Made by a program: the position numbers and the translations under genes | Notes under the pieces: generated by a model | The model's input: only the letters and a program-made list of their open reading frames with translations | What the model was told of the DNA's origin: nothing | Database searches by the model: none | Shown here: piece by piece, positions 4,294-49,081 of the stretch | Position numbering within the stretch: the stretch's first letter is position 1 | How the letters are laid out: every line of letters starts with the position of its first letter | Origin: Candidatus Microgenomates bacterium | GTDB lineage: Bacteria > Patescibacteriota > Microgenomatia > UBA8517 | Reading direction: 5' to 3' | Assembly (NCBI GenBank): GCA_049523135.1 | Contig: JBEKNE010000001.1 | Coordinates: 455,009-519,008, forward strand | DNA length: 64,000 nucleotides

Positions 4294-4488
4294 CTTCTTG
4301 ACAACAATATAAGGGCTGATAAAATCCTATTCATCGGTAGCAGTTGTGGTATCGAGATAATGAGACTAACGCTCGGTGGTTGCAATGCCCACATCCTCCG
4401 AAGGGTTGCTCGTGTCATGTGAGAGAAAGATGAGTCTCGATCTTTCTCTGTAATAATTGCACATTTATTTTTTATTGTGCGAGTGTAG

Positions 4489-4578
4489 CTCAGAGGTGAA
4501 GAGCGGGAGATATAACTACTCAAAAACTTTTGAGGAGGGTAATCTCTAAATCGGTGGGTTCGAATCCCCCCACTTGCG
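4489..4578 (+). ncRNA. tRNA-like gene with ~30-nt insertion in the anticodon arm (isotype not assignable)
   Basis: Acceptor GCGAGTG/CACTTGC (one G-U). D-arm GCTC-AGAGGTGAA-GAGC. T-arm GTGGG-TTCGAAT-CCCCC. A GGAGAT/ATCTCT helix encloses 32 nt that contain a perfect CTCAAAA/TTTTGAG hairpin and no canonical 7-nt anticodon loop. Confidence 0.45.
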
Positions 4579-11448: not shown

Positions 11449-12720
11449 ATGAGTAAGATTAAAAAAATTTGGGCTCGTGAAATACTTGATTCAAGGGCTA
11501 TTCCAACCGTTGAAACTGCCTGCATGCTTGATAACGGACAAGTCGCAGTTTCATCTGTTCCCGCGGGCACGTCAACAGGAACACATGAAGCGCTGGAGCT
11601 TAGGGATGAAAATAATCCCAGATATCTCGGGTTTGGGGTTTTGCAAGCCGTGAACAATGTTAATTCTTTTCTTGGACCTGCCGTTACCGGAATGGATCCG
11701 GCCAATCAATCTGAAATTGACAAAAAATTGATTGAAATGGACGGAACGGAAAATAAATCAAAGTATGGAGCCAATGCTATTCTTTCAATTTCCGAAGTTG
11801 TCGTAAAAGCCGGTGCAATAGCCGCAAAACAATCACTTTACGGTTGGATTTTTTCAATGGCTTCAAGAGCCGGAATTACTCAGACAGTCAAAGTTCCAAC
11901 TCCTCTTTTTAATATGATTAACGGAGGCAAACATGGTGCGGGGAATCTTGATTTTCAGGAATTTTGGGTAATACCCGGGTCTTCAAAGAAATATTCCGAA
12001 AGTTTGCAGATGGGTGTTGAAATTTATCTGACTATCGGTAGAAATTTGGCACACCGCGGGGCTATTCATTCCGTAGGAGACGAAGGCGGATATGCACCGA
12101 ATTTATTTACCAATGCGGATGCACTGGAGGTCTTTGTTGAATCCATCCGCCAGACCAAATATTCCCTAGGACGGGATGTATTTTTGGGATTGGATGTTGC
12201 GGCAAACAGTTTTTATAAAAACGGAGAGTATTTAATAAAAGACCGTTCCTCAACTTTAAGTGATTCCCAGCTTTTGGATTTTTACAAAGCTCTTTGTGAT
12301 CAATATAAACTTGCAATTTTGGAAGATCCCTTTCAGGAAGATGCGTGGAGCAGCTGGGCCAGTCTTACCAGTGAACTTTCTCAAAGTGTGGTTATTGTCG
12401 GAGATGATCTTTTGGCAACAAATCCGAACCGTGTAGAAAAAGCAATTAAAGAAAAATCCTGCAACGCAATCCTTATTAAGCCAAACCAAATAGGAACAAT
12501 ATCGGAAACCCTTAATGTAATAAAAATGGCAAGAGACGCAAAATGGACTGTTATTGTTTCCCACAGATCCGGTGAAACAAACGACAGCTTCATTGCGGAT
12601 TTCGGCGTGGGAGTTGCGGCTGATTATGTAAAATTCGGTGCTCCGGCCCGCGGTGAACGTGTTGCCAAATACAACAGGCTTTCTACAATAGAAACGGAAT
12701 TATCTAGGATTAACAAATGA
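11449..12720 (+). CDS. eno: enolase
   Basis: IWAREILDSRAIPTVE...SVPAGTSTGTHEALELRD; full-length enolase signature. Ends with an ATGA overlap into gpmI. Confidence 0.95.
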   Translation: MSKIKKIWAREILDSRAIPTVETACMLDNGQVAVSSVPAGTSTGTHEALELRDENNPRYLGFGVLQAVNNVNSFLGPAVTGMDPANQSEIDKKLIEMDGTENKSKYGANAILSISEVVVKAGAIAAKQSLYGWIFSMASRAGITQTVKVPTPLFNMINGGKHGAGNLDFQEFWVIPGSSKKYSESLQMGVEIYLTIGRNLAHRGAIHSVGDEGGYAPNLFTNADALEVFVESIRQTKYSLGRDVFLGLDVAANSFYKNGEYLIKDRSSTLSDSQLLDFYKALCDQYKLAILEDPFQEDAWSSWASLTSELSQSVVIVGDDLLATNPNRVEKAIKEKSCNAILIKPNQIGTISETLNVIKMARDAKWTVIVSHRSGETNDSFIADFGVGVAADYVKFGAPARGERVAKYNRLSTIETELSRINK

Positions 12721-35725: not shown

Positions 35726-36391
35726 ATGGCAGATAAAGAGGAAATAAAAGAAAGAAAGAGAATGATTGTGGAAGAAGTTAAGGAACCCACAACCACAACT
35801 CCCCAAATATTACCCGAGGCTGCTAAAGTATCATCAACGGTTCTTGAAGAGGAAGATAAAAGCGGAGAAAAAAGTATTATTGATGAAAATGTAGCGCCTG
35901 TTCCCACTCAACCTAAAAAATCTTCTTCACTCGCTCTTTGGATAATTATCCCCCTTATTTTTATATTGGGAGCGATTCTTGGAGGTGTTGTTTTTTATTT
36001 AAAGGGTGTAAATAAAGGACAGGAAGAATCCAATACTCCTACACCGGAAGCCTCTATCGCCACACCGGCTCCTTTAGCCAGTCCTTCCGCTACTATTGAT
36101 CTGACAAAATACTCAATTACCGTTTTTAATGGTTCCGGAATAGCAGGTGAAGCCGGTAAAGTTAAAGATTTGCTGACATCTGCGGGGTTTACGGTAGGAT
36201 CAACCGGAAATGCGGCTACATATGACTACACAAAAACAATTATTAAAGCCAAAACTACCGTTGATGCAGATTTCCTTACACAACTTTCCATGACCTTGAG
36301 TAAAAACTATGTTTTGGATTCAAATCAAACATTGGCAACTTCTTCCGCAGTTGATGTACAGGTTTTTGTAGGATCTTCAAAAGCGCAATAA
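35726..36391 (+). CDS. membrane-anchored LytR_C (LCP C-terminal) domain protein
   Basis: TM helix, Pro/Thr/Ala linker, then ITVFNGSGIAGEAGKVKDLLTSAGFTVGSTGNA...YDYTKT, which is the LytR_C signature. Confidence 0.6.
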   Translation: MADKEEIKERKRMIVEEVKEPTTTTPQILPEAAKVSSTVLEEEDKSGEKSIIDENVAPVPTQPKKSSSLALWIIIPLIFILGAILGGVVFYLKGVNKGQEESNTPTPEASIATPAPLASPSATIDLTKYSITVFNGSGIAGEAGKVKDLLTSAGFTVGSTGNAATYDYTKTIIKAKTTVDADFLTQLSMTLSKNYVLDSNQTLATSSAVDVQVFVGSSKAQ

Positions 36392-36405
36392 TAAAATTTT
36401 TCTTG

Positions 36406-36476
36406 AGCGGGTAGGGGGAATCGAACCCCCGTCAAAAGCTTGGAAAGCTCCTATTCTACCATTGAACCATACCCGC
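36406..36476 (-). tRNA. tRNA-Gly(UCC)
   Basis: Manual fold: acceptor GCGGGTA/TACCCGC; anticodon loop TTTCCAA; T-arm GGGGGTTCGATTCCCCC. Confidence 0.88.
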
Positions 36477-36501
36477 GAGTTGTAATATTATATCAAATTT
36501 G

Positions 36502-36574
36502 TCGGAGTGCCCGGGCTCGAACCGGGGACCTCCACGTCCCAAACGTGGCGCGCTACCAACTGCGCTACACTCCG
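36502..36574 (-). tRNA. tRNA-Pro(UGG)
   Basis: Manual fold: acceptor CGGAGTG/CACTCCG; anticodon stem CACGT../..ACGTG with loop TTTGGGA; T-arm CCCGGTTCGAGCCCGGG. Confidence 0.88.
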
Positions 36575-36764
36575 TGGTGCCGAACTCGGTGTTATACTCG
36601 GACCTGTTCAGCTACTTCAATGATACCACACCTGAGGCTGGGATTCTGGCCGGACAGTTGGAACTTTTGAAGGCTCACCTGGGTGAAAGTTTTGCGATTG
36701 TTCATTAGTATTGTTTTCTTAGAGCCCTTGTGCTACATTCGACTCATCTTCTGCCTGGGTATAT

Positions 36765-38003
36765 ATGTTTCGCGAACTTAATTTTGTTTTAACATTTATT
36801 CGGGATTTTATTGTCAAAAATGATTTGATTGCAAAATATTCCGTTCTGTCTGGGCACTACAGTAAAGCACAAGAAACAGGAACTGCGGGATCTGGGGAAG
36901 GTCTAAAGGACGAAATAGATACAGTTAAGAAACAAATTTTTGAAATACACGCTTCCGTAAATTTTGAGGTTTGGAGTTCTCCCAAAATAAGCATTCTGGA
37001 GCGGATGGTGGCTAAAGACTATATAGGGCCAGGTGCCATGACTGCGTTAAATAAGATTTTGAATGATAGCATCGGAAATCCCCTTAAAATCTCACAGGCA
37101 ATAACGGTTTTTCAAAATTCCACAAACGAACTCTTGACCCGGACGAACCAGGCGATTGCTACTTTAGGCTTAACAAATTTTACCGAGGACGTCCCAGCGG
37201 ACCGGCAACTATTGGAAATCAGTTTCTCCGATAACTCTCTAACCAAAAATTTCTGGTATCTAAAGGATACGGCTGCCGGATGGAGCACAATAATACGTGC
37301 CGTAACTAGACTAACTGGTGACAACTTTGAGACTGTTGAGATTCTCTCTCAAACCAGCGGCTCTCCCGATTGGGGTATTTTAATTTCTTCAACCAAAGCC
37401 GCTAGTGGGGTTTTAATTCAGCTCGTAGATTTTGCAATGAAACTTAAAACTATAAAAGATACCTTTTTCAAAAAGAAGGCCAAAGTTGAGGATGTTGGAC
37501 TTCCCAATAAAAAGACGCTTGAACTTGCAATAAAAGATTTGGAAGTAGAAAGGGATGACGGCTTCAAAGCAAAGCTTGGAGAATTTTCCATAAAAATGGT
37601 TAATGAAAGTAAGGGTGAAATTAAAGGTGAAAACAAGAACGAACTGAATACACTCACCCAAACAGCACTGAAAATTTTAGAGAATTTTGCAAGTTCGGGA
37701 GTAAAAGTTGTAGACCCGAGAGAAATAGTTCCTGTCCCGGAAGCGGACACGCCAACAACTCTTGGTCCAATCTATTCGGAAGATAAGGTCCTTAGTGATG
37801 AAGTTCGTGTTTTGTCAGAAGCTGAAAAACAAAAGTTTCTTGAAGCAAAACATGAAGAAATGGTGGACGAAATGGAAGTTTCAAAAGTACAGAAGCCAAC
37901 AGAAGAAATCGTTGAAGTTAAAAAAGGCCCGGGAAGACCACCCAAAACAAAACCAGCTACAGTAGTAGAGAAAAAGGTCAAAATTGTAGAAAAGAAAATT
38001 TAA
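36765..38003 (+). CDS. hypothetical protein with C-terminal Lys-rich AT-hook-like (GRPPK) tail
   Basis: No recognisable catalytic motif. C-terminal KKGPGRPPKTKP. Confidence 0.4.
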   Translation: MFRELNFVLTFIRDFIVKNDLIAKYSVLSGHYSKAQETGTAGSGEGLKDEIDTVKKQIFEIHASVNFEVWSSPKISILERMVAKDYIGPGAMTALNKILNDSIGNPLKISQAITVFQNSTNELLTRTNQAIATLGLTNFTEDVPADRQLLEISFSDNSLTKNFWYLKDTAAGWSTIIRAVTRLTGDNFETVEILSQTSGSPDWGILISSTKAASGVLIQLVDFAMKLKTIKDTFFKKKAKVEDVGLPNKKTLELAIKDLEVERDDGFKAKLGEFSIKMVNESKGEIKGENKNELNTLTQTALKILENFASSGVKVVDPREIVPVPEADTPTTLGPIYSEDKVLSDEVRVLSEAEKQKFLEAKHEEMVDEMEVSKVQKPTEEIVEVKKGPGRPPKTKPATVVEKKVKIVEKKI

Positions 38004-38551
38004 GCCTGCATCAGTCGTTGTTGGAATCTTTTTTCAATTTCTTCCATTTTCCATTGATTATCTTTTATCTTTGAAAGTTTTTCTTTAGCCTCCCTCTTTT
38101 TTATGGAATAGGTACCTGGGTCTTTAAGCTGGACCTTATAGGTAGTGTTATCAAGTTCATTAATACATTGCACAAGAGACGAGTAATCGCAAGCATAATT
38201 TATAAAATAGCGTGCATAATCTGCCCAATCTTGATAAACAAAACTCTTTTCATCTGCTGTACTATATTTATATTTTTCTTCAAGTCTTATAAATTTCTCT
38301 CTCAACGCAAGAGAAGTCTTTAATTGTTTAACTGTATTTTCTATTCGTTCCTTTTTACTTGCCTTAGACCCATCAAAAAGAAGATTTTCTGGTATATCAC
38401 TTACGTCTATCGGTTGTATAGTTTCCCAATTTTTTCCTGATAGAGTTGTATAAATCTCACTATTTATACTATTCTCAAGAGTAAGTTTTGCCACATGATA
38501 GTATTTATCTCCATATTCAGTAAGTTGTTTTATGTTTTTTCTAGCTTTCAT
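38000..38551 (-). CDS. hypothetical protein (last gene of the ftsK-like/Mrr-cat operon)
   Basis: ORF only. 35-nt gap to the upstream Mrr-cat gene on the same strand. Confidence 0.35.
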   Translation of the reverse strand: MKARKNIKQLTEYGDKYYHVAKLTLENSINSEIYTTLSGKNWETIQPIDVSDIPENLLFDGSKASKKERIENTVKQLKTSLALREKFIRLEEKYKYSTADEKSFVYQDWADYARYFINYACDYSSLVQCINELDNTTYKVQLKDPGTYSIKKREAKEKLSKIKDNQWKMEEIEKRFQQRLMQA

Positions 38552-38586
38552 TAATCACGATTATACACTTGTTTTAAATATCGTAT

Positions 38587-39345
38587 TTAGGACAGACTTT
38601 CTAGTATACTTCCAATTTCGGGCAACTGATCACCCTCAATTAACAAAACATTATTTTTTTGAGCAAGGGCTTTTGCAGACCTGGTAAATGTAGAATTTGT
38701 GACAACGATAGCAAAGTCACCTTGATAATAATTTTTAGCTGCTACAATTTCCTGTACAGCTTTATTGCCAACCGGTTTTGTATAACGCTTCGCTTGTATA
38801 ATATATTTTCTGTTATTTTTTGAGGCTATCACATCTGCTCCCTGATCACCGGTTTTTGGAGTTCCCCTAACATCGTAGCCCAAATCTTTTAAATTGTGTT
38901 CAATGAATCCTTCAAAATCTACTCCACTCATATCATTAAGTGATGTCTCTTTAGGCAAATTTTTACCCTTTGTCTTGTAAAAATCTTTAAATATTTTATC
39001 AAGATCTTCAAAATATAGTTTGATAAAAAACTGGGATAAATCTATATATTCATCATTTGTTTTAGAAAGTGCAAATCTAAGATATTGACCCATCTGTGAA
39101 ATCAAGATATCTCTAGGTGCTCCCGAGACTTCCATTCGTTCATTTTCTAAAAAAAGATTGTCCATAAATCTTTGGGAAATGCCAAGCGTCGAAGAAATTT
39201 TTTCAATACATCTTTGCTTTTCGGCCGCAACAGATTCCCAGTCCTCTTGCCCGTATTCATCAATGATTCCGACTTTCCTGGACGTTATTTCACAAAACTT
39301 GTTTATAACATCTCTGTTTTTATCCAAAAAACTTTTATATTCCAT
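38587..39345 (-). CDS. Mrr-cat (restriction endonuclease-like) domain protein with unknown N-terminal domain
   Basis: C-terminal FEGFIEHNLKDLGYDV...GDQGADVIASKNNRKYIIQAKRY...NKAVQEIVAA matches the PD-(D/E)xK Mrr catalytic core. Confidence 0.65.
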   Translation of the reverse strand: MEYKSFLDKNRDVINKFCEITSRKVGIIDEYGQEDWESVAAEKQRCIEKISSTLGISQRFMDNLFLENERMEVSGAPRDILISQMGQYLRFALSKTNDEYIDLSQFFIKLYFEDLDKIFKDFYKTKGKNLPKETSLNDMSGVDFEGFIEHNLKDLGYDVRGTPKTGDQGADVIASKNNRKYIIQAKRYTKPVGNKAVQEIVAAKNYYQGDFAIVVTNSTFTRSAKALAQKNNVLLIEGDQLPEIGSILESLS

Positions 39346-39349
39346 ATTT

Positions 39350-40789
39350 TTATTTGTTTTTATTACGCCACTTACCCCTTGTAAATTCCAAACCCCTGTT
39401 TCTCATGTCCCTTAAGTGCGATATCTCACTTTCAAAAGCTACATCCTTATCTACAATATCTTTTGGATATTTGGCCGCAGTCCCTTCGTGTTCATTTTTT
39501 CCATAAGTATCAAAAAATTCTTGAGCATTTTGTATCAAAACCTCCTGGGGTTTACTAGATCCATCAGCCGCTGCAATTACCCCCGCTGCTACAAGTTGGT
39601 CCATCATTCTTGCCGCACGAGCGTAGCCTATCGATAGCCTTCTCTGTAAAAGCGAGGCTGTAGCTCTATCATATTGGCAAACAGTTTTAACGGCTTCAGG
39701 AAAAAGATCGTCAACTCCGCTGGATGTTGAACTTACTGCCTTTTCTGAATACTGGCTAGGAATACCCTGATCTTTTATAAATGTAATTAACCTTATAAGG
39801 TCTTTATCAATTAACTTTGGGCTTTGTAAACAAGTGGGGAAGATCTCTTTGTTTTTAACGAACACGAAATCATGGGGAGCAAGGAATGATACCGATCGTG
39901 CTATTGTAGATTGATTTTCATTTCTTGCCTCGGATGAAAACGCAATTCTAGATTGAATCATGTTTACAAACTCCCTATCTGGCTTTGTACTTGATAAAAC
40001 AGCATAAATTCCAGTTTTTTGTCCAGTTTCAAAAATTCTACCTAGTCCGTCTCTGTACTCCATTGGTGAGAAGGCGTCAATTTCTAAACAATCGTCAATA
40101 AATGTAACTATGTAGGGTAGTGCTTGGAAGCCAGACATTTCATTATATACATCAATATTTTTAGCTCCTGCTTCTACAAAAAGTTTATACCGCCTACTCA
40201 TTTCTGCCATTAACCACCTAAGGGCGGAGATTACTTTTTCCGGTTCAACAATTACAGGCGATAGAAGATGGGGAATACCGTTAAAACAGGTTAAACCAAG
40301 TTTAGATGGATCAACAATTATGAGTTTTACCTCACTTGGTGAAGCCCTGAATAGTAAAGATGCTAAAAATATTTTTATTAAAGAAGTCTTACCTGAATTG
40401 TCATTTCCAGTAATCAATAAGTTTGAAGTAATTGCGAGATCACTTGATATGGGATTTCCTAGAGCGTCAAAGCCCAAGGCCACTCCCAACTTTGAAGTAA
40501 TTTTTCGCATAGGTTCACTTAACAGAATTGAATAGAATGAACTTTGCTCACCGTCAAGTAAGGACACCGGCGGATACTTCCAAATTCTCTCTTTCCCCGG
40601 AACATTACTGACTAGTTTTTGCTCGAGTGGCTCCTTAGGGACGTAGTTGATTCGAGGCGAAACCTGTTTGTAGGCCGTAAAAAGAGGCTTTGTCTCTAAT
40701 GCTGATATACCCTTATTCTTTCGTTTGGAACTGACCGCTAGAACAAGAATAACTAAAATAGCAAGTACTACCCAACCCATTTGAAACAA
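39350..40789 (-). CDS. ftsK: FtsK/SpoIIIE-family DNA translocase (short, single TM, gamma winged-helix present)
   Basis: Walker A ITGNDNSGKTSLI; motor-domain motifs; C-terminal gamma-domain LLQRRLSIGYARAARMMDQLVAAGVI. Confidence 0.78.
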   Translation of the reverse strand: MFQMGWVVLAILVILVLAVSSKRKNKGISALETKPLFTAYKQVSPRINYVPKEPLEQKLVSNVPGKERIWKYPPVSLLDGEQSSFYSILLSEPMRKITSKLGVALGFDALGNPISSDLAITSNLLITGNDNSGKTSLIKIFLASLLFRASPSEVKLIIVDPSKLGLTCFNGIPHLLSPVIVEPEKVISALRWLMAEMSRRYKLFVEAGAKNIDVYNEMSGFQALPYIVTFIDDCLEIDAFSPMEYRDGLGRIFETGQKTGIYAVLSSTKPDREFVNMIQSRIAFSSEARNENQSTIARSVSFLAPHDFVFVKNKEIFPTCLQSPKLIDKDLIRLITFIKDQGIPSQYSEKAVSSTSSGVDDLFPEAVKTVCQYDRATASLLQRRLSIGYARAARMMDQLVAAGVIAAADGSSKPQEVLIQNAQEFFDTYGKNEHEGTAAKYPKDIVDKDVAFESEISHLRDMRNRGLEFTRGKWRNKNK

Positions 40790-40982
40790 TTATAACTCTA
40801 TTATTAAATTTGCGTAGATGTTTTTGTGTTTCGGTCGGATTAGCCGTACAACCGCCATTTTGCGACGCAAATTCGAGGCTAACAACTTAATTTTCAATCG
40901 CCTCAGGCATAAACCCAATTAATTTACAGCCTATAATTAGAGCTTTTTGATTATGTACCTATGTTAAAATAGATGTGGATAA

Positions 40983-41822
40983 ATGTTAAACGGAACGCTA
41001 CAAAAAATTAAAGACACAGGATCTGAGGACCCATTCAATGCTCGACTTATGTTCGAAATTTTTAGTTTGCGTGACAAGATGGTAAAGAGTGATCAAGAAC
41101 GCCTACTTTTCGATAATTTCTACAATCCGATCCTGGAAACCATGGAGGAGACAGAGGATGCTTTTAAAAATGTAGTTAATATTATTAATAACCACAAGGC
41201 AAAAGTTGAAAACGGCTCAATTATAAAATTTCAGCATGATGTAATCGAGGTGAGTGAATCGATTGATAAGGAACTGAAGAAAAATTTTAAAGACTTTTTT
41301 GTAAAAGGCAATCGTGCAATGGATTTACTTGTCCCCTTCTTCAAGAATTACGGGTATTCAATTGGATTTGTTTTTAAGAATGACAAGGATTTTCTCGCAG
41401 GAGCAAGAAAATTTTCGGAAAAACATAATGAAGAAAAACACTCCAACTTTTTGAAGATGATTGAAGCTGACAGAAAACTATGGTTGCCACTTTTTGTTTC
41501 ACAAAGACAAGAGATAGAACACGAGGGTACGTCGCTTCCCGGTACGAAATATATGAAGACAAGGCCGGGTGAAGTTGCAGCTGTTTTTCCGAAAATTGAC
41601 GGCATCGAAATAACTGAACTTTTAAAAGGTAAATGGTGGACGCTTTTCGAGTTTGTCGAAGACTGCGTGGTAGCTTTAATAGACTTTAAACTTGAAGACC
41701 CCTGGATTATTGTACAAATTCCAGAAGGAAAACGGGATATAACTATGCCGTTGAAATATACCACCTCCGTTAAAGGATTTGCAGAATTTTTAGAAGCTGA
41801 AAGATTGAAAAAATCGCAATAA
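40983..41822 (+). CDS. hypothetical protein (first gene of putative integrative element)
   Basis: ORF only. Confidence 0.35.
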   Translation: MLNGTLQKIKDTGSEDPFNARLMFEIFSLRDKMVKSDQERLLFDNFYNPILETMEETEDAFKNVVNIINNHKAKVENGSIIKFQHDVIEVSESIDKELKKNFKDFFVKGNRAMDLLVPFFKNYGYSIGFVFKNDKDFLAGARKFSEKHNEEKHSNFLKMIEADRKLWLPLFVSQRQEIEHEGTSLPGTKYMKTRPGEVAAVFPKIDGIEITELLKGKWWTLFEFVEDCVVALIDFKLEDPWIIVQIPEGKRDITMPLKYTTSVKGFAEFLEAERLKKSQ

Positions 41823-42038
41823 AATGAGCTATAATGCGGTAGTTAGGACCTAACCCTATTCAAATAGGTATGGTTAAAGAAAACCAGTAACGAGCAGAAA
41901 GCTCTCGTTGGAGCATCGTTACTGGTCACGGTTCCGAAAGGAATTGTGGGTGCCGCAAGGCATCGCCGACGGGAGCTTTTTATTTTGTATATATAAAAGT
42001 CTTCCTTCGGCCACCTTGTAACGAAAGAGGGTGAGGGT

Positions 42039-42674
42039 ATGGAAACACAAACAACCAAGAAAGACGAATGGTACAAGAAACCCTTTGGGGTGGTTTTAAT
42101 GCTACTTCTCTTTTTCCCAATAGGTCTTTACTTGATGTGGAAGTATACAAATTGGAATTCAAGGGTTAAATGGGGAATAACCGGTTTCTTTGGATTAATG
42201 ATTGTTATTGAAGGTGTGGTTAGCAATTTCCAAACAAGTAGTCAGACAAACCCAGTAGCAACAGGCCAATCTCCTAGTTCCGAGGCTACAACGACGCCCA
42301 GTCCAACTCCTGTAAAACAATTGGATTTGAAAGTAACCAACCTGGTAGTTAAAAAAATTAATATGGACCAGTGTCGATATTTTTTTAACATTAAAAATGG
42401 AGAACCGAATAACTTTTCAGGAAAAGTTGGTGTAGCTTTACATAAACTTGATAGTGTCTGGCCTGAAGATGGAAGTGAAGTACAGATTGATCAACTTGAA
42501 CCAAATTTATACAAAGTCTTTTATTTAGACAGTTCGCTTTGTCCGAATACTGTCGAGAAAGGTGGAGCTGCAACTTTTAGCTATACTGTAGAGGATGTAA
42601 ACGGGAATAAAGTTTTTGGAGAAGATCAGATACCGGTCACTAATCAATTTGAGGATGACACTATTAGTTATTAA
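42039..42674 (+). CDS. hypothetical membrane-anchored protein with Ser/Thr/Pro linker
   Basis: Two N-terminal TM helices, an S/T/P-rich linker, and a beta-rich C-terminal domain. RBS AGGGTGAGGG. Confidence 0.35.
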   Translation: METQTTKKDEWYKKPFGVVLMLLLFFPIGLYLMWKYTNWNSRVKWGITGFFGLMIVIEGVVSNFQTSSQTNPVATGQSPSSEATTTPSPTPVKQLDLKVTNLVVKKINMDQCRYFFNIKNGEPNNFSGKVGVALHKLDSVWPEDGSEVQIDQLEPNLYKVFYLDSSLCPNTVEKGGAATFSYTVEDVNGNKVFGEDQIPVTNQFEDDTISY

Positions 42675-42739
42675 AAATCTGAAAAATATAGGGTTATTAC
42701 AAACTATTCAGGTTTGCTTACCTAGACTATAATTTCCCT

Positions 42740-43258
42740 ATGAGAAAATATGACTGGCCCAACCTGAAGCAGGAATTCCTCACAGGGAAGTGGCTAAGTG
42801 TGGCCACTTTCTTTCGGGAAAAGGGTATCAGAAACAACTCACGCAGTAGGCTCAACGCTTCAGGATGGATTAAAGAAAGAAAAAACGATTTAGAACAGAT
42901 CGTCTCAAAATCCAAGGAAAGGATTATTGAAAGTGAGGTGGAGATCAGAATAAGGCAAGCTGAGGCTGCTAAGACGATGCAGCGGGTTGGATTAGAGAGA
43001 TTGGATAAACTATCCCCTGAGACGGCTGAAGACGCCAGAAAGCTCGTTACATCAGGCCTGGAACAGGAGCGTAGAGCTCTTGGACTTGAAGGCACGACTC
43101 ACCCTCAAAGACTGACACAAATCAATTTCAATGAACTTCCAAAGACTAAATTTGATGCAATGTTAGACGGCAAAAGTGCAGAGGAACTTTTGGAATTGCT
43201 AGCTGAAATAAGAAAGGAAAGAGAGCGAAGAAGAAATCTCGCAGTGACAGTGAAGTGA
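42740..43258 (+). CDS. phage terminase small subunit-like HTH protein
   Basis: N-terminus KYDWPNLKQEFLTGKWLSVATFFREKGI...ASGWIKERK follows the KxDWxxIKxEYxxG...GW pattern of XtmA/YqaS-type small terminases. Coiled-coil C-terminus. Confidence 0.4.
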   Translation: MRKYDWPNLKQEFLTGKWLSVATFFREKGIRNNSRSRLNASGWIKERKNDLEQIVSKSKERIIESEVEIRIRQAEAAKTMQRVGLERLDKLSPETAEDARKLVTSGLEQERRALGLEGTTHPQRLTQINFNELPKTKFDAMLDGKSAEELLELLAEIRKERERRRNLAVTVK

Positions 43259-43517
43259 CAGAACAGTGACAATTTCATCTCCATCCCCCTACCCCCGGTA
43301 TTCTCGAAGGCTGTCTGTGCGTGCATACGTATGGCACTTCAAAAACATGAGCAATTTTTTGAAAAGTTATGCTTTTTGTAAAATTTAGGCACGGTATTTT
43401 TGTAACTTCAACCTTTTTAGCTTCGTTTTGTTGTGAGAGTCACAAATCTTGACACGAAAACTGCTATCGGTCTAAAGTTGGGGTAATAGGTGTAGATCTG
43501 TAGAAATGCAGCGATCA

Positions 43518-43547
43518 GCACAGGCCTTGAACGGTCTGTGCTTTTTT
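43518..43547 (+). terminator. rho-independent terminator-like hairpin
   Basis: GCACAG-(12 nt)-CTGTGC followed by TTTTTT. Confidence 0.4.
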
Positions 43548-43734
43548 GATGCCTAAACAAATGAAAGATAGAGTAACACAGACAGAACCAAACGTTATCG
43601 CCCAAAAGTGCCCGGTGTGCAACGGCTTCGGCACGGTTTCATTCCAGAAAATTAAATGTCATGCCTGTGACGGTAAAGGTTTTATTTTAATCCCCGCAGA
43701 GATAGATAGAAAGAAATATGAAACAACCTTCTAA
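43546..43734 (+). CDS. small zinc-finger protein (two CxxCxGxG repeats, DnaJ-CR-like)
   Basis: CPVCNGFG and CHACDGKG. Likely ATG start at 43549. Confidence 0.4.
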   Translation: MMPKQMKDRVTQTEPNVIAQKCPVCNGFGTVSFQKIKCHACDGKGFILIPAEIDRKKYETTF

Positions 43735-44023
43735 AACATTTACACCTGAAATATCAAGAGTCCTCGAGCTTTATGAAGAAGCTGACAACCTGGCTAAAGA
43801 TTTGTTGATAAAAAGTTGGAAATTAAAGAATGAGGACAAGCAAATCGCAAGACTCTATTACCAAAAAGCCTGTAGAGAGCGACAGAAGCTAGCTGAGCGT
43901 TTGGTTGATATAACAAAAGGATGGGAGCTGCGAGAGACCAGGGGCTTTGAAAGAGTCGGAGAGACTTTGATCCGCATGATTAAGGACGGATATTTAGATT
44001 TGGAGGTTAAAAATGAGAGTTAG
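43718..44023 (+). CDS. hypothetical protein
   Basis: ORF only. Confidence 0.3.
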   Translation: MKQPSKTFTPEISRVLELYEEADNLAKDLLIKSWKLKNEDKQIARLYYQKACRERQKLAERLVDITKGWELRETRGFERVGETLIRMIKDGYLDLEVKNES

Positions 44024-44507
44024 AGAATGGTTTGTAATTCTACAGCAGAGTGAAGTTGAAAAATGTAAAACACCATCTCAATTACTCGTCTACGCTTCAA
44101 TTAAAAGCTTTTGCGGTAACGGAAAAATTCATGCAGCATTATCCTACCGCGATATCTCTAATAGATCAAAGTTTTCTGTCGGATGGACAAAACCGGTAAT
44201 TGAACAATTAAAAAAATTAGGACTTGTGTTTACTCACGGAACAGAAATAAGGAGAGGCGGAACTGTGGAAGTGTTTAGTGTTGGAACAGTAGATAGCGAC
44301 CAAGGTGTTCCGTCCGTCTCAATTAGTGTTCCGCAAGCAGGCACCAAAAACCAGCAAAGTAAAAAAGTAAATAAAAACAAACAACATCCTTATAAGAATC
44401 AGAAAGAATCCCTGACTGCCGCCCCGCAAGCATTGCCCAGCGACTTAAAAGAAAAATTATGGAGCTGGGCTGAAATAATTTCCGAGAAGGGAGGCGGTCA
44501 TGTCTGA
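44013..44507 (+). CDS. hypothetical DNA-binding (possible winged-helix replication) protein
   Basis: ORF immediately upstream of, and overlapping, the ATPase gene. Basic, Lys-rich C-terminal half. Confidence 0.3.
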   Translation: MRVREWFVILQQSEVEKCKTPSQLLVYASIKSFCGNGKIHAALSYRDISNRSKFSVGWTKPVIEQLKKLGLVFTHGTEIRRGGTVEVFSVGTVDSDQGVPSVSISVPQAGTKNQQSKKVNKNKQHPYKNQKESLTAAPQALPSDLKEKLWSWAEIISEKGGGHV

Positions 44508-45432
44508 CTTTTTCGATATTGTTTCAAAAAAAGATCTCTCCGAAAAGATAACTTGCGGGATCTCTTCAATTGATAATTCTATTAAAGGTTTTACTGTCGG
44601 GGGCAATTACCTATTATCCGGGCCTAGAAAGTCAGGGAAAAGTAGTTTGTTGGTTGGCTTCGTAAATCATTGGTTGTCAAAATCGCTCGTTGTCGGCTAC
44701 ATAAATTCCGAGATGGATGAAAAACATCTCAACGACATGCTCCAGTCTAATTTCTTTGACAAGCGAAAAGATGAATTAACTGCAAACAACGATATGGAAT
44801 ATAAAAACAGATTTCGTTCAAGTTTTTTATATTCCGGACCGACGGATATTCGTGGTAGTCAGGGTATAAGTTTGGATGGCTTGGAATCAGAAATTAGAAG
44901 ACTGATTAAAGCAGGTGCAAAAATCATAGTGATCGACAATCTTACAAAACTACAGGAATCAGCTCCAAGCGGGACACCGGGATATCAGAATTTGGCAAAA
45001 GGTGTTTCCATAGTTACCACTTTATGCAGAGATAATAACGTTCTGGGTTTTACTGTAATTCATACAAAGGATGAGCTCACTTTTACTGAAACTCCTGAAG
45101 GAATAGCCAAGGCAGTTGAAGACCATCTTCCTGAAAAGATATTTGAAAAATCTGTAACGATTTTAAGAAAACCAAGTTCTTCTTCAATTTACGGAGGGGG
45201 TAGTACAAAAACAGATTTACTCGGAACAATGCTCTTATGGAGGCCGTATCAATTCTTTTCCGATCCAAGTTATTCTTCGCTCGCAGCATTAATATTTGAA
45301 GATTTTAGAGGAGAAGCTCCGTTGGAAATGGTACGACTGATGTTTGACGGTTCTAAAAGTGTTTTTAAGGAAGATCTTTTGGAAAAGAATATCCGGAAAA
45401 TATTTGGAACGGAGGAAGCAGATGGAAAATAA
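44500..45432 (+). CDS. RecA-superfamily ATPase (DnaB C-terminal/KaiC/AAA_25-like), putative element replication helicase/loader
   Basis: GISSIDNSIKGFTVGGNYLLSGPRKSGKSSLLVGF is the Walker A layout typical of the DnaB-C/RepA family. Walker B IIVIDNLT. Confidence 0.55.
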   Translation: MSDFFDIVSKKDLSEKITCGISSIDNSIKGFTVGGNYLLSGPRKSGKSSLLVGFVNHWLSKSLVVGYINSEMDEKHLNDMLQSNFFDKRKDELTANNDMEYKNRFRSSFLYSGPTDIRGSQGISLDGLESEIRRLIKAGAKIIVIDNLTKLQESAPSGTPGYQNLAKGVSIVTTLCRDNNVLGFTVIHTKDELTFTETPEGIAKAVEDHLPEKIFEKSVTILRKPSSSSIYGGGSTKTDLLGTMLLWRPYQFFSDPSYSSLAALIFEDFRGEAPLEMVRLMFDGSKSVFKEDLLEKNIRKIFGTEEADGK

Positions 45433-45628
45433 AAAATCTGCTCCCCAATCACCTGACAGCTTCTTAACAAAGATTGAGGTAGAAGAGTTTAAAAAAATCG
45501 TAAAGGAATTATACGGGTTTGATCTTAATAATTCAGAGGCTGAAGATCAAGGTAGAAGATTAATCCAAATATTCGAGCTCATACAAAGGTTCGAACTGAA
45601 TCCCGATGTCGGGAAAAGATATAGTTGA
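45422..45628 (+). CDS. small hypothetical protein upstream of integrase (candidate directionality factor)
   Basis: ATG overlaps the stop of the ATPase gene. 68 aa, acidic. Confidence 0.25.
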   Translation: MENKKSAPQSPDSFLTKIEVEEFKKIVKELYGFDLNNSEAEDQGRRLIQIFELIQRFELNPDVGKRYS

Positions 45629-45665
45629 AAGGTGTTAAGAAAGGATTAAAGATTGGTTAAGAACT

Positions 45666-47267
45666 ATGAAAGCGACAATTATTGCTAGAGTTAGCAAAGA
45701 CGAACAAAAAGAAAATTCACCAGAAGCCCAAAGAGCAAGACTTTTAGCATATATAAAACGGTCAAATAAACTGATTTTGGATAGGGAATTTAATTTTGAA
45801 GAATCGGCCCATAGAGCAAAAGACCGAAAAAAATTTAATAATGAAGTTATTCCGTATCTTAAAAGCCAAAAAGAAACTATCGCTGTATGTTGTGACAAGG
45901 TAGACAGATTGTCTCGAGATTTTTTAGTGGGTCTACCCGCTCTTGAGGAACTTAGAAGAGAAGGAAAAATTGAAATTCATTGCCCATCGGACAATTTGAT
46001 TATACATAAAAATTCCCCTGCGACAGACCTTTTTCATTACAATATAGCATTAGCTCTCGCTCAGTATTATTCGGATAGTACTAGCGACAATGTCAAACGA
46101 GCTTTTGAGAGAAAAATTGCCCGGGGTGTTTATCCAAACCATGTGCCATTGGGATACTTAAATACGCCAGAGTTAGAAAAGGGTCACAGAGAAGTCCACG
46201 ATGATAAGGAAAGATGGCATCTTTGTCGAAAATGGTGGGATTTGATGCTGACCGGAATTTACACAGTAGAGGGCTCCCTTGAAGAAATTACTCGATTAGG
46301 ATTACGAAATTTGAGAGGCAACCCAATCTCAAGAACAACAGCTTACCGGTATTTTAGGGATATTTTTTACACCGGTAACTTCAAATTTAACAATATTGTT
46401 TATCCGGGTAGCCATGTTCCGATGATTACAATGACTGAGTGGATTAAAGTACAACATATTCTCGATAGTAAAGGTAAAAGAGGTAACGGAACAATTGACG
46501 ATTCATTCCAAAAAGCGTTTGAAGGAATGCTTAGGTGCGGTGAATGCAAGGCGAGTATCACGATGGAAAGGAAAATTAAGCATTACAAAAATGGTACAAC
46601 TCAGGTTATTTGGTATTATAGGTGTACGAAAAAGAAAGGACATTGTTCTCAACCATACTTAAATGCTAAAGATTTTGACCCTCAAATCCATAAATATATA
46701 TCAAGTTTAGAGATCAACCCAAAATTTGGAGATTGGATTAAGAAAGTACTTAAAAGGCGTAATGCATATGAATATGAATTTTCTCGTAAAAATAGGGAAA
46801 TAATTACTAAAAGACTAAATGAACTAGATACAAAGAAAGAGATACTTACGAAAATGAAGATGGATGGAATGGTTGACGAGGAGAAGTATCAAACTAAAAA
46901 GAATGCGTACTTAATAGAAGAGAAAGAGTTATTGGAGGAACAATTAGTGAAAACCACTGAAAAATGGGAATCTGTAGTAGACAATTTAATCAATTTCGCC
47001 TCTAATGTTAATAAATTATTCGAGTTTGGAGATATTTACACAAGGCAGTATGTATTAAAAATACTTGGCTCGGACCTGATTTTACTAGACAGAAAAGTTA
47101 AAATTGAGGCTAAAAAAGCGTTTATTTTCCTCCGGGACTATCAAGACAACTCACACACGGAAGATCTATGGCTCGAACCCAAGAATATGCCGTATTCTAG
47201 GACAAAAGAGGACTCTGCCTCTAAAAAATCCCTTACTGTGCCGAGGGCGGGACTCGGACCCGCATGA
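45666..47267 (+). CDS. large serine recombinase (integrase)
   Basis: Resolvase catalytic domain IIARVSKDEQ (Ser nucleophile) and Arg residues. Recombinase domain. Zinc ribbon CGECK...YYRCTKKKGHC. Coiled-coil. C-terminal codons PRAGLGPA lie inside tRNA-Leu. Confidence 0.9.
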   Translation: MKATIIARVSKDEQKENSPEAQRARLLAYIKRSNKLILDREFNFEESAHRAKDRKKFNNEVIPYLKSQKETIAVCCDKVDRLSRDFLVGLPALEELRREGKIEIHCPSDNLIIHKNSPATDLFHYNIALALAQYYSDSTSDNVKRAFERKIARGVYPNHVPLGYLNTPELEKGHREVHDDKERWHLCRKWWDLMLTGIYTVEGSLEEITRLGLRNLRGNPISRTTAYRYFRDIFYTGNFKFNNIVYPGSHVPMITMTEWIKVQHILDSKGKRGNGTIDDSFQKAFEGMLRCGECKASITMERKIKHYKNGTTQVIWYYRCTKKKGHCSQPYLNAKDFDPQIHKYISSLEINPKFGDWIKKVLKRRNAYEYEFSRKNREIITKRLNELDTKKEILTKMKMDGMVDEEKYQTKKNAYLIEEKELLEEQLVKTTEKWESVVDNLINFASNVNKLFEFGDIYTRQYVLKILGSDLILLDRKVKIEAKKAFIFLRDYQDNSHTEDLWLEPKNMPYSRTKEDSASKKSLTVPRAGLGPA

Positions 47268-47322
47268 GTTATGCACTCGAGGGCTCTTAAGGCCCTTGCG
47301 TATACCATTTCGCCACCTCGGC
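47239..47322 (-). tRNA. tRNA-Leu(UAA), class II
   Basis: Manual fold: acceptor GCCGAGG/CCTCGGC; anticodon stem AGGGC/GCCCT with loop CTTAAGA; long variable arm. The T-loop is TCCGAGT with an unusual C at position 55. The 3' 29 nt overlap the integrase CDS. Confidence 0.8.
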
Positions 47323-47349: not shown

Positions 47350-48954
47350 CTATTTTTTAGCTGCAGCTTTCAAAAACTCAACAAAAATTGGGTGGGGAGA
47401 AAGAGGACGACTGATATACTCCGGGTGAAACTGTGTTCCTACAAAAAACGGGTGATCTTTTAGTTCAATTGCCTCAACCAATTTTCCATCAGGGGAAGTG
47501 CCGCTAATTATAAATCCGGCTTTCTCAAAACTCTCCCTGTATTTATTATTGAATTCATATCTGTGTCTATGTCTTTCATTTAAAACATTATCTTTTCCGT
47601 AGATTTTATGAAGTAAAGTTCCTTTTTTAATTTTAAGTTGCCAGGCTCCAAGTCTGATCGTTCCCCCGAACTGCTTATTTTTTATAAGTTCTTTTTGATA
47701 ATCCATTGTATGGATAACCGGATGTTTTGTTCCGTCTTCTGCCTCTTCCGTATTGGCATCTTTCAAACCCAAAACATCACGAGCAAACTCAATTGTTGCC
47801 ATCTGCATTCCAAAACAAAGTCCAAGATAGGGAATATTATTCTCGCGGGCATATTTTATTGCGGAAACTTTGCCTTCAATCCCACGTTTTCCCCATCCTT
47901 GAGGAACCAAAATTGCATCCATTTGGGAAAGATCCATTTTTTCATCTTCCGAATCAACCCAATTTATATTTATTCCTATTCCCGTTTTGGCCGAAGCATG
48001 TCTCAAAGCTTCAACTACGCTCACATACGCATCTTGCAGAATATAGTCCCCGCTTCTTTGGTATTTTCCGACAATTCCGATTTTTACAGTTTTTTGTTTC
48101 TTGGCTTGAACTTTCTTTACCATCTCGATCCATTTTTCCAAATCCGATTTTCCCGCTTTAAATCCAAGTTTTTTCAACACTTTCAAATCCAATTTTTCTT
48201 TTTTGAGAAATAAAGGAACTTTATACACAGAGTCCAAATCGGGGTTACTGATAATGTTCTCAATAGGAAGACCAGATGCAAGGGCAATTTTTTCTTTTCT
48301 TTTATCGTCAACAACTCTTTCGGCTCTGCCAACCACGAAATCCGGCATAATTCCCAATGAATTAAGAGTAGATATCGATTGTTGGAGAGGCTTGCTTTTA
48401 AGTTCCCCAATATTTCCTGGGGCAGGCAGATAACCTACATGAACCAAGACAACATCTTTAGGATATTGAAGTTTTAGTCTTCTGTAGGACTCAAAAAATA
48501 AAAGTCCTTCATATTCGCCAACTGTGCCCCCAAGCTCTATTATGATTATATCCGCTTTGTTTATTTCCCCCGCTTTCTGCCACCTTTTTATAATCTCCGG
48601 AGGGATATGGTGATAAGGCTCAACACACTTGCCTTCATAGTCGAGCGCCCGCTCTTTATCTAAAACAAATTTGTAAATTAACCCGTTTGTTAGGTAATTA
48701 TCGCGGGATAAATTAACTCCCAGAAATCTTTCATAATGCCCGAGATCCTGATCGGTTTCGATTCCGTCATTGGTAACAAAAACTTCCCCGTGTTCAATTG
48801 GATTCATTGTACCCGCGTCAATATTAAGGTACATATCACATTTCATTATGGTAACTTTGTAGCCCCTGCTTTGAAGAAGGAGTCCGAGGGAGGCGGCGGT
48901 TATGCCTTTACCGAGGCCGGAGAGAACACCACCAGAAACAATAATATACTTCAC
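47350..48954 (-). CDS. pyrG: CTP synthase
   Basis: KYIIVSGGVLSGLGKG synthase N-terminus and a C-terminal GATase (GLCFGMQ, HPE). The ORF track start at 49014 is also GTG and would overlap tRNA-Arg, so the GTG at 48954 is preferred. Confidence 0.9.
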   Translation of the reverse strand: MKYIIVSGGVLSGLGKGITAASLGLLLQSRGYKVTIMKCDMYLNIDAGTMNPIEHGEVFVTNDGIETDQDLGHYERFLGVNLSRDNYLTNGLIYKFVLDKERALDYEGKCVEPYHHIPPEIIKRWQKAGEINKADIIIIELGGTVGEYEGLLFFESYRRLKLQYPKDVVLVHVGYLPAPGNIGELKSKPLQQSISTLNSLGIMPDFVVGRAERVVDDKRKEKIALASGLPIENIISNPDLDSVYKVPLFLKKEKLDLKVLKKLGFKAGKSDLEKWIEMVKKVQAKKQKTVKIGIVGKYQRSGDYILQDAYVSVVEALRHASAKTGIGININWVDSEDEKMDLSQMDAILVPQGWGKRGIEGKVSAIKYARENNIPYLGLCFGMQMATIEFARDVLGLKDANTEEAEDGTKHPVIHTMDYQKELIKNKQFGGTIRLGAWQLKIKKGTLLHKIYGKDNVLNERHRHRYEFNNKYRESFEKAGFIISGTSPDGKLVEAIELKDHPFFVGTQFHPEYISRPLSPHPIFVEFLKAAAKK

Positions 48955-49009
48955 TCTGGAACTACTTATATCACATTCGCTTGAGAAGATGTCAAGAGGA
49001 AAATTTTTG

Positions 49010-49081
49010 TGCACCTGGGGGGAATTGAACCCTCATCAATAGTTCCGAAGACTATTGCTTTATCCGTTAAGCTACAGGTGC
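49010..49081 (-). tRNA. tRNA-Arg(UCG)
   Basis: Manual fold: acceptor GCACCTG/CAGGTGC; anticodon stem ATAGT/ACTAT with loop CTTCGGA; T-loop TTCAATT. Confidence 0.8.

Follow-up and report, generated by a model that had tools for sequence, protein, structure and literature searches.

Genes for transfer RNA or transfer-messenger RNA are the integration sites of 44.5% of tyrosine-integrase islands, whereas they were used by only 14 of 297 serine-integrase islands, a use called previously unreported (Mageeney et al., PMC7192596), and a review of mobilizable elements describes serine recombinases as integrating within genes and disrupting them (PMC5704250). We analysed a 64,000-nucleotide stretch of a Candidatus Microgenomates bacterium (contig JBEKNE010000001.1, positions 455,009 to 519,008; hereafter the window, in whose coordinates positions are given), in which the gene of a large serine recombinase, int, ends inside a tRNA gene. 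We conclude that positions 36577..47244 form one integrative element of 10,661 bp, carried by a Woesebacteria-like chromosome of the candidate phyla radiation (CPR, or Patescibacteria), and that a large serine integrase (Int) from a CPR clade that targets tRNA genes put it at the very 3′ end of tRNA-Leu(UAA), a reading to which we give a probability of about 0.9. An original prediction, made from the letters of this region, had proposed an integrated element at tRNA-Leu(UAA) with the serine integrase reading into the tRNA, which comparison with empty sites bore out. It had also called this the classic arrangement, a description that fits tyrosine integrases, tRNA use being rare for serine integrases as the 14 of 297 cases above indicate.

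The insertion became apparent when the window was set against its relatives, found by scanning species-representative genomes with the adjacent CTP synthase gene pyrG (47350..49014); the matches were to Woesebacteria and other Patescibacteria, the closest being 82-86% identical. In the genomes L012, L026 and L016 (L numbers designate the genomes and loci compared here) pyrG, tRNA-Leu(taa), tRNA-Pro(tgg) and tRNA-Gly(tcc) follow one another in that order within some 270 nt, with a gap of 3 nt between tRNA-Leu and tRNA-Pro in L026, and in L011 the three tRNA genes also lie within about 270 nt. The window has the same three tRNAs, all on the minus strand: tRNA-Leu(UAA) at 47238..47322 (tRNA-Leu(taa) by ARAGORN, 56.1 bits with the Rfam tRNA model), and tRNA-Pro(tgg) at 36501..36574 with tRNA-Gly(tcc) at 36405..36476 (both by ARAGORN), which together form the host flank 36405..36574. 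Here tRNA-Leu (47322..47238) and tRNA-Pro (36574..36501) stand 10.66 kb apart. By tblastx against seven relatives, synteny runs from 51040 down to 47345, resumes at 36448..36070 and goes on from 30673 down to 24921, while positions 36575..47237 have no match in any of the seven, whose tRNA-Leu, tRNA-Pro and tRNA-Gly genes are clustered. Nor are the FtsK and Mrr genes and two orphan genes (for proteins of 412 and 183 aa) found at the tRNA-Leu/Pro site of the relatives. The interval 36575..47237 is a clean insertion between tRNA-Leu and tRNA-Pro. The uninterrupted tRNA-Leu in related genomes, for which the original prediction had advised a search, was found: L012 and L026 are empty sites whose tRNA-Leu is identical to that of the window.

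The T-loop of this tRNA had been read as TCCGAGT, correctly, and explained by a divergent 3′ half that the element had supplied. The explanation did not survive, given that all 85 nt of the tRNA, T-loop included, are identical in L009, L010, L011 and at the empty sites L012 and L026, and that only 7 bp are shared by the two junctions. Since the TCCGAGT tRNA is the same at empty sites, the C at position 55 is a native trait of the lineage, unrelated to the element. It replaces a near-universal U in the T-loop of tRNA-Leu(UAA) (47252..47260; L009-L012 and L026); the T-loop of L016 has C55 as well (TCCGAAT), and that of L020 has the usual TTCGAGT.

The same comparison settles how far the element extends. 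Positions 40983..47322 had been proposed, that is, a 6.3-kb element with the divergent tRNA 3′ half in its attachment (att) site, the FtsK-like gene and its neighbours then being host genes. The plus-strand ORFs (open reading frames) of 40983..45628 are indeed co-oriented with int and without housekeeping matches, as had been noted, their only hits being DnaB_C-like (44500..45432) and weakly DnaD-like (44013..44507), and the FtsK-like protein has a gamma domain as chromosomal FtsK does. However, no core or tRNA fragment was found near 40790..40982, around which a half-site had been expected; the distal junction abuts tRNA-Pro, at 36577..36604. The tRNA-Leu of the window does not differ from that of the empty sites, and in the relatives tRNA-Pro comes directly after tRNA-Leu, without FtsK, Mrr or the two orphan genes. 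Furthermore, the FtsK-like protein (39350..40789, minus strand; 476-479 aa; Pfam FtsK_SpoIIIE 3.5e-35, FtsK_gamma 5.3e-21) is only 51% identical to the canonical FtsK of L020, versus 75% between true FtsK orthologs among the relatives and 82-86% for pyrG. Its nearest non-self homologs are 48-54% identical and are nearly all CPR FtsK proteins of about 700 aa, and it has a single N-terminal hydrophobic segment in place of the multi-pass N-terminus of four transmembrane segments and the alpha domain of chromosomal FtsK. Judged by its sequence, the gene is an element-borne paralog and not the host ftsK, and the element would show the capture and remodelling of a host ftsK fragment. The element thus spans 10,661 bp and includes the FtsK-like, Mrr-fusion, 183-aa and 412-aa genes; the shorter version, refuted by the empty-site comparison, is very improbable.

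Each end of the element carries a 7-bp core, GTGCCGA on the plus strand (36577..36583 and 47238..47244, 10,661 bp apart). The junctions emerged from the empty-site comparison alone and not from repeat searches; 3-mismatch patterns, repeat finding and word-7 blastn detected no second copy of the tRNA 3′ half in the 64 kb. The window diverges from the empty-site sequence directly after ...CTCGGCAC, and beside tRNA-Pro it reads ...GAGTTCGGCACCA|CGGAGTG, of which the right-hand part matches ...CCCTCGGCACCA|CGGAGTG in L011 and L016. The host side of this distal junction, ...TCGGCACCA|CGGAGTG, is the native Leu-Pro junction of these two genomes, ...GGCACCA|CGGAGTG, which the distal junction thus preserves. 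On the tRNA, the 7 bp common to both junctions comprise five bases of the acceptor stem, the discriminator base and the first C of CCA. In the mechanism that we propose, Int would have recombined an attP inside the 3′ end of int with an attB that combines the final bases of tRNA-Leu(UAA) with the beginning of tRNA-Pro, the exchange falling inside GTGCCGA, probably at the central CC. An exchange within these last 7 nt would leave the tRNA intact and its body wholly host DNA, with only the encoded CCA end replaced; an encoded CCA is missing in some relatives too. Reconstructed on the plus strand, the attP junction would read ...CTCTAAAAAATCCCTTACTGTGCCGAACTCGGTGTTATACTCGGACCTGTTC... and the empty attB ...CGCTACACTCCGTGGTGCCGAGGGCGGGACTCGGACCCGC.... 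Directly 3′ of tRNA-Leu lies a terminator-like hairpin with a T-run (47207..47222, minus strand) that is supplied by the element, and L009 and L089 have a similar stretch, AGTCC..TTTTGTCC, after the tRNA.

The geometry of the junctions was compared with that of a studied serine integrase. On the tRNA side, the attB-type arm (47238..47260, plus strand) consists of the core, a 7-nt spacer and the motif ACTCGGACC, which coincides with the T-loop region of the tRNA (47252..47260); at the distal junction (36577..36604, plus strand), where an attP-type arm meets the host tRNA-Pro side, the spacer is 12 nt and the motif ACTCGGACC is at 36596..36604. The 9-mer GGTCCGAGT occurs only twice in the 64 kb, once per junction, separated from the core by 7 nt in the attB-type arm of the tRNA and by 12 nt in the attP-type arm of the element. 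With the Listeria integrase, the motif for the zinc-ribbon domain occupies attB positions 11-19 and attP positions 16-24, i.e. it is 5 bp closer to the centre in attB (Rutherford et al., PMC3783163), and the same numbering applied here makes the central dinucleotide the CC at 47241..47242, inside the 7-bp identity. The 5-bp shift supports, without proving it, a serine-integrase att geometry. Some observations pull the other way: at the +5 shift the motif fits 9/9 positions on one arm and 5/9 on the other, so that it is perfect on one arm only, and the attP-arm motif could be a vestige of a tRNA-like sequence. When Int and the FtsK-like protein were looked up as exact proteins, every contig returned had the element integrated, always at this site, and neither an empty site nor a circle was found in that population. 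The dyad symmetry of the arms is weak, and GC content shows no jump at the element.

Int itself (45666..47267, plus strand; 533 aa when integrated) is, on the evidence of its sequence, an intact integrase of the large serine type. It matches PF00239 Resolvase (5.7e-15, residues 5-155), PF13408 Zn_ribbon_recom (2.6e-8) and, with 21.1 bits and exactly at the cutoff, PF07508 Recombinase, as well as PHROG 95 'integrase' (3e-50, residues 1-488), and it has no Pfam match to Phage_integrase, the tyrosine recombinase family. R8, S10, C291, C294, C320 and C327 are invariant in an alignment of Int with 29 homologs. The catalytic serine and the zinc ribbon that the original prediction had attributed to the 533-aa protein were thereby confirmed, and so was the end of its ORF inside the minus-strand tRNA-Leu(UAA): the two overlap at 47238..47267, a stretch of 30 nt in which the stop codon is counted. 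Since the crossover falls within the int frame, tRNA DNA supplies the final 8 codons of the integrated int (RAGLGPA plus stop). In the circular form as reconstructed, Int has 567 aa, and integration would swap the C-terminal tail for the shorter one. Directly upstream, a small ORF (45404..45628, plus strand; 68-74 aa as called) has counterparts in the four closest elements (L089, L181/L182 and L183), with 54-59% identity over 31-48 aa and in the same position relative to int. The protein is a candidate for a recombination directionality factor or a regulator of int, and excision would be carried out by Int with this protein as the directionality factor.

The element resembles the systems of Listeria A118/LI, Bxb1, phiC31 and SPbeta in the resolvase-recombinase-zinc-ribbon order of its integrase; its two junctions share only 7 bp, its 9-bp motif, shifted by 5 bp between the attP- and attB-type arms, may be a further resemblance, and the small conserved ORF next to int is its candidate directionality factor. 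It differs from them in that its target is the preserved 3′ end of a tRNA and not the interior of a protein gene, and in that its attP lies inside the int frame, so that integration alters the C-terminus of Int. With tyrosine-integrase tRNA islands it has in common an int at the element end by the tRNA, a tRNA that remains functional and a terminator supplied by the element. However, the recombinase belongs to an unrelated family, the repeat is 7 bp long compared with the 15-50+ bp of tRNA 3′ copy in those islands, and there is no displaced tRNA half.

The arrangement is the rule among the relatives of Int, which form a large clade, mostly of the CPR. There were 697 homologs at E <= 0.001 among the candidates scored, and all those with a name came from the CPR (Daviesbacteria, Pacebacteria, Parcubacteria, Ryanbacteria, Patescibacteria). 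The int of the closest homolog, L089 (61%), ends 20 nt inside tRNA-Leu(gag), and for L181/L182 and L183 the end again falls within tRNA-Leu genes, (taa) and (gag); a second att pair was not found within the fetched DNA of these four loci. Of 90 loci of the family from IMG/VR and JGI metagenomes, 63 could be evaluated. Among these, 51 have an int frame that extends into a tRNA on the opposite strand, with 27 tRNA species involved, a frequency that shows the int-into-tRNA arrangement not to be due to chance. Int is at most 28% identical to any GenBank phage integrase and matches nothing in the PDB by sequence, and the element has no DNA match to GenBank phages. No description of this CPR integrase clade was found in the literature searched, which is absence of evidence only. 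Int homologs at the level of about 40% were also seen at the very end of viral contigs of 30-60 kb, running into tRNA-Gly genes (L090-L096 and L099-L108; IMG/VR and JGI), and these contigs indicate that larger (pro)phages use the same integrase clade and arrangement. In L110, a group I intron (1858..2072, minus strand; 67.4 bits) was observed about 1 kb from the tRNA-Gly that the integrase overlaps.

The pyrG-side cluster of tRNA-Leu, tRNA-Pro and tRNA-Gly is a rearrangement hot spot (L009, L010, L011, L020). tRNA-Leu is inverted relative to pyrG in L010 and L020, both tRNA-Leu and tRNA-Pro are inverted in L011, and the bases after tRNA-Leu in L010 (AGGATTT...) resemble the element-side arm. 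In L009, a close relative of the host, a 45-aa int relic (11832..11966) adjoins the identical tRNA-Leu. The rearrangements in these four genomes may be scars of past serine-integrase events. An exact-pattern scan of metagenome contigs for the pyrG/tRNA junction gave no match. Of two independent assemblies, L003 ends at window position 47267, the int stop inside the tRNA, and L004 starts at 45629, 37 nt before the int start; such breaks could stem from a mixed population at the junction or simply from k-mers that tRNAs share. A tandem or composite insertion was considered and rejected, there being no internal copy of the core; serine integrases do not target attL or attR (PMC3783163), which makes tandem accretion unlikely.

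As to the way of life of the element, we hypothesized that it is a phage satellite of the type of the Staphylococcus aureus pathogenicity islands (SaPI) and phage-inducible chromosomal islands (PICI), a suggestion that we hold at roughly even odds because int and a helicase of its own are combined with a small terminase subunit (TerS) and no other virion gene. The element is small (10,661 bp), has int at one end and encodes a DnaB_C-like ATPase, with no primase detected. The TerS homolog, e172 (42740..43258, plus strand; 172 aa), was recognised by family links, gene context and a structure model, and is the sole virion- or packaging-related gene recognised. Its family has 177 cluster representatives, the distant members of which match PHROGs annotated as terminase small subunit (best phrog_1206, 4.8e-14) and align with the close family at an hhalign probability of 99.4% (E 1e-21, 143 columns). 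Homologs 35-43% identical to e172 are encoded directly upstream of large terminase (TerL), portal and head-morphogenesis genes on 25 IMG/VR contigs, where the neighbouring TerL is about 570 aa long (phrog_675, 1e-101 to 3e-117; portal 3e-58). The AlphaFold2 model of e172 (pLDDT, the predicted local distance difference test, 86) has a three-helix helix-turn-helix head, a long helical hairpin and a C-terminal helix. Its top match in a viral structure library is a terminase small subunit, a weak one (E 0.025); Foldseek against the PDB was uninformative, and the e172 profile found designed helical proteins only among PDB sequences. No large terminase, portal, capsid, tail or lysis gene was recognised in the element, though its orphan proteins may include divergent virion genes; ten of its proteins have no structural PHROG match, and no remnant of TerL or portal was found anywhere in the window.

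A decayed prophage that has lost its virion genes and become immobile would also combine a phage-type TerS with an integrase, and that no assembly holds an excised form could be read in the same way. The 45-aa int relic at the same tRNA in L009 indicates that such elements do decay at this site. In the window, however, the ORFs are all intact and tightly packed, Int keeps every invariant residue, and no TerL, portal or head pseudogene was traced, nor any virion structural and lysis genes or remnants of them such as a prophage would have. The element is identical in at least five assemblies. Its circular map is coherent and includes a helicase module of its own: the plus-strand genes end in int with attP, followed by the 412-aa gene, and converge on the minus-strand operon, with one divergent control region between the FtsK-like and 279-aa genes. 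We find decay to a remnant rather improbable.

The helicase module begins with two small overlapping plus-strand ORFs of 101 and 164 aa (43718..44507), the second of which (44013..44507) has weak winged-helix/DnaD-like features (phrog_186 0.0067; weak HTH_36 and RPA_C matches) and is a weak candidate for a DnaD-like helicase loader. It is followed by a 310-aa ATPase of the DnaB C-terminal, RecA-fold type (44500..45432, plus strand; Pfam DnaB_C 1.2e-7; phrog_19 'DnaB-like replicative helicase' 2.9e-16), which is a candidate replicative helicase of the element.

A replication gene, together with int, a tRNA target and a size of 10.7 kb, also fits an integrative, self-replicating plasmid-like element akin to the actinomycete integrative and conjugative elements (AICE), in which a membrane-anchored FtsK/TraB-like translocase would transfer double-stranded DNA and the TerS-like protein would be a DNA-binding regulator only. 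pSAM2 and SLP1 of actinomycetes are small replicons of this sort, integrated at tRNA genes; besides int and a rep gene they have an FtsK-domain protein whose winged-helix end binds DNA. In the FtsK-domain protein of our element, one hydrophobic segment stands at the N-terminus and a winged-helix (gamma) domain at the C-terminus, and a short FtsK-gamma gene 51% identical to it lies on a contig with T4SS (type IV secretion system) pilin, relaxase and coupling-protein-like genes. Unlike the proteins of pSAM2 and SLP1, though, it is encoded by a degenerate CPR ftsK copy that has a nuclease as its partner: the alpha domain is absent, the conserved TQRP motif reads SSTKPD, which leaves its activity uncertain, and its partner is a small domain fused here to an Mrr nuclease, a pairing that looks more like a nuclease or defence module than a transfer gene. 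Besides, residues 3-164 of e172 align with phage proteins encoded next to TerL, and a clt-like repeat array was not found in the element. Further genes of AICEs are Spd, Pif and Kor, of which the element has no homologs that we could find. An AICE-like element is thus an unlikely explanation.

The partner gene (38587..39345, minus strand) encodes a 252-aa protein with an N-terminal domain (residues 1-122) and an Mrr-type nuclease domain (Pfam Mrr_cat 6.4e-30), for which PADLOC gave matches to the nuclease domains of ZorD, PDC-S02 and a type IV restriction endonuclease; it is likely to be accessory or defence cargo. The pair of a short FtsK-gamma ATPase and a domain of about 120 aa recurs, with 51% identity in each case, in L179 (5789..7277) and L180 (5792..7280), and it is on the contig of this recurring pair that the T4SS pilin, relaxase and coupling-protein-like genes lie. 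The pair of L179/L180 and that of the window (38587..40789) are on two unrelated mobile elements, the small domain being fused to Mrr, as described, in the window; in L179 a PDDEXK nuclease gene adjoins the pair. FtsK-gamma and the small domain may constitute an undescribed ATPase-nuclease module.

The satellite interpretation remains the one that we favour. SaPIs, PICIs and the Vibrio PLE (phage-inducible chromosomal island-like element), which also uses a large serine recombinase, are likewise about 10-15 kb long with an integrase at one end and a replication helicase of their own; they have TerS without TerL or capsid genes (the SaPI strategy) and accessory cargo of the nuclease type. In the life cycle that we envisage, the element would replicate by its DnaB-like helicase module and be packaged into the capsids of a helper phage, as SaPIs and PICIs are. 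Helper packaging is proposed because a TerS homologous to those of uncultured tailed phages is present without large terminase, portal, capsid or tail genes. The FtsK-like/Mrr pair, the 279-aa protein and other orphans would be accessory genes, possibly for defence, and an RNA of the LOOT family (see below) would be an element-borne small RNA. Several findings count against this interpretation. Every contig with the element has it integrated at the same site, no helper phage was identified, and e172 itself has no direct match to a TerS profile, the link being made through intermediate sequences and gene context. No TerS was found in the fetched DNA of the elements most closely related to it (L089, L181-L183 and the P0011 locus), and satellite behaviour is accordingly not a trait of the whole clade. 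Family search of the element proteins recognised no master repressor or AlpA-type regulator, no primase and no capsid-remodelling gene; the element differs from the known satellites in lacking a recognisable Stl/AlpA-type regulator, primase and capsid-size genes, as well as in its CPR host and in having no known helper. The loss of the TQRP motif in the FtsK-like protein counts here as well.

More tentatively, CPR bacteria could host an undescribed class of small elements mobilised by a serine-integrase clade specialised on tRNA 3′ ends, with attP in the int frame and the rewriting of the Int tail as a possible switch between the integrated and excised states; the element of the window might then be the first CPR phage satellite, and LOOT a satellite-borne regulatory RNA. 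If so, it would be the parasite of a phage whose host is itself thought to live attached to other cells. CPR mobile elements and phage biology are almost unknown, and an element with TerS alone points to an interplay of satellite, helper and host in ultra-small bacteria. Serine integrases are also the main tools for the insertion of large DNA, and a clade with many conserved, non-disruptive tRNA targets and att sites readable from genomes would widen the choice of predictable landing sites. It further bears on the question raised by PMC7192596 of why tRNA genes are favoured by tyrosine but not by serine integrases.

The LOOT RNA (Rfam RF03000) lies at 41847..41964 on the plus strand (71.5 bits against a gathering score of 46.4; model positions 1-121), with a TATAAT 12 nt upstream (41830..41835) and a hairpin with a T-run just downstream (41965..41983). 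A second copy is present in the related element L089 (281..400, minus strand; 78.6 bits), and LOOT was found neither in more distant int loci nor beside phage TerS genes. A consensus of the two copies by MAFFT and RNAalifold did not reproduce the Rfam structure, and a literature search on LOOT yielded nothing usable. To our knowledge the motif was known only from unclassified metagenomic sequence, in contrast to its occurrence here inside two serine-integrase elements of CPR bacteria, which gives it for the first time a taxonomic home and a genetic context.

Most of the remaining proteins of the element are orphans with respect to Pfam, PHROGs and PADLOC. The 412-aa protein (36765..38003, plus strand), whose gene comes just downstream of int in the circular form, is Lys/Glu-rich, repetitive and coiled-coil-like by eye, with no match in any of the three collections; in IMG/VR no close relatives were found for it, for the helicase or for the membrane protein. 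The minus-strand operon ends with the gene of the 183-aa orphan (38000..38551, minus strand). The element has a single divergent intergenic region (40790..40982), in which there is no att core; it is a candidate regulatory region and precedes the 279-aa orphan (40983..41822, plus strand), a member of a very rare family with seven matches in 5.8 billion sequences, one identical and six others. In L184 (1..12165) a 40% homolog of the latter has as neighbours DUF2779 and HD-domain genes and a type I restriction-modification operon into which a reverse transcriptase gene is inserted, between hsdS and hsdR; this neighbourhood looks like a defence island. A 211-aa predicted membrane protein (42039..42674, plus strand), with an N-terminal hydrophobic segment and a Ser/Thr/Pro-rich linker, has no family match, and a 62-aa zinc-ribbon ORF is found at 43546..43734 (plus strand).

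In the 460-nt gap upstream of the replication genes, a near-consensus promoter-like site (43449..43478, TTGACA-18-TAAAGT) precedes, by about 40 nt, a GC-rich hairpin of 10 bp with a T-run (43517..43542, plus strand). Promoter and terminator scans across the element were at chance level overall; the site 43449..43542 may represent a very short transcript or an attenuator. Lastly, at window positions 4479..4578 (plus strand), where ARAGORN made no call, the Rfam tRNA model scored 39.9 bits over 100 nt, and this may be an intron-containing or otherwise unusual tRNA.

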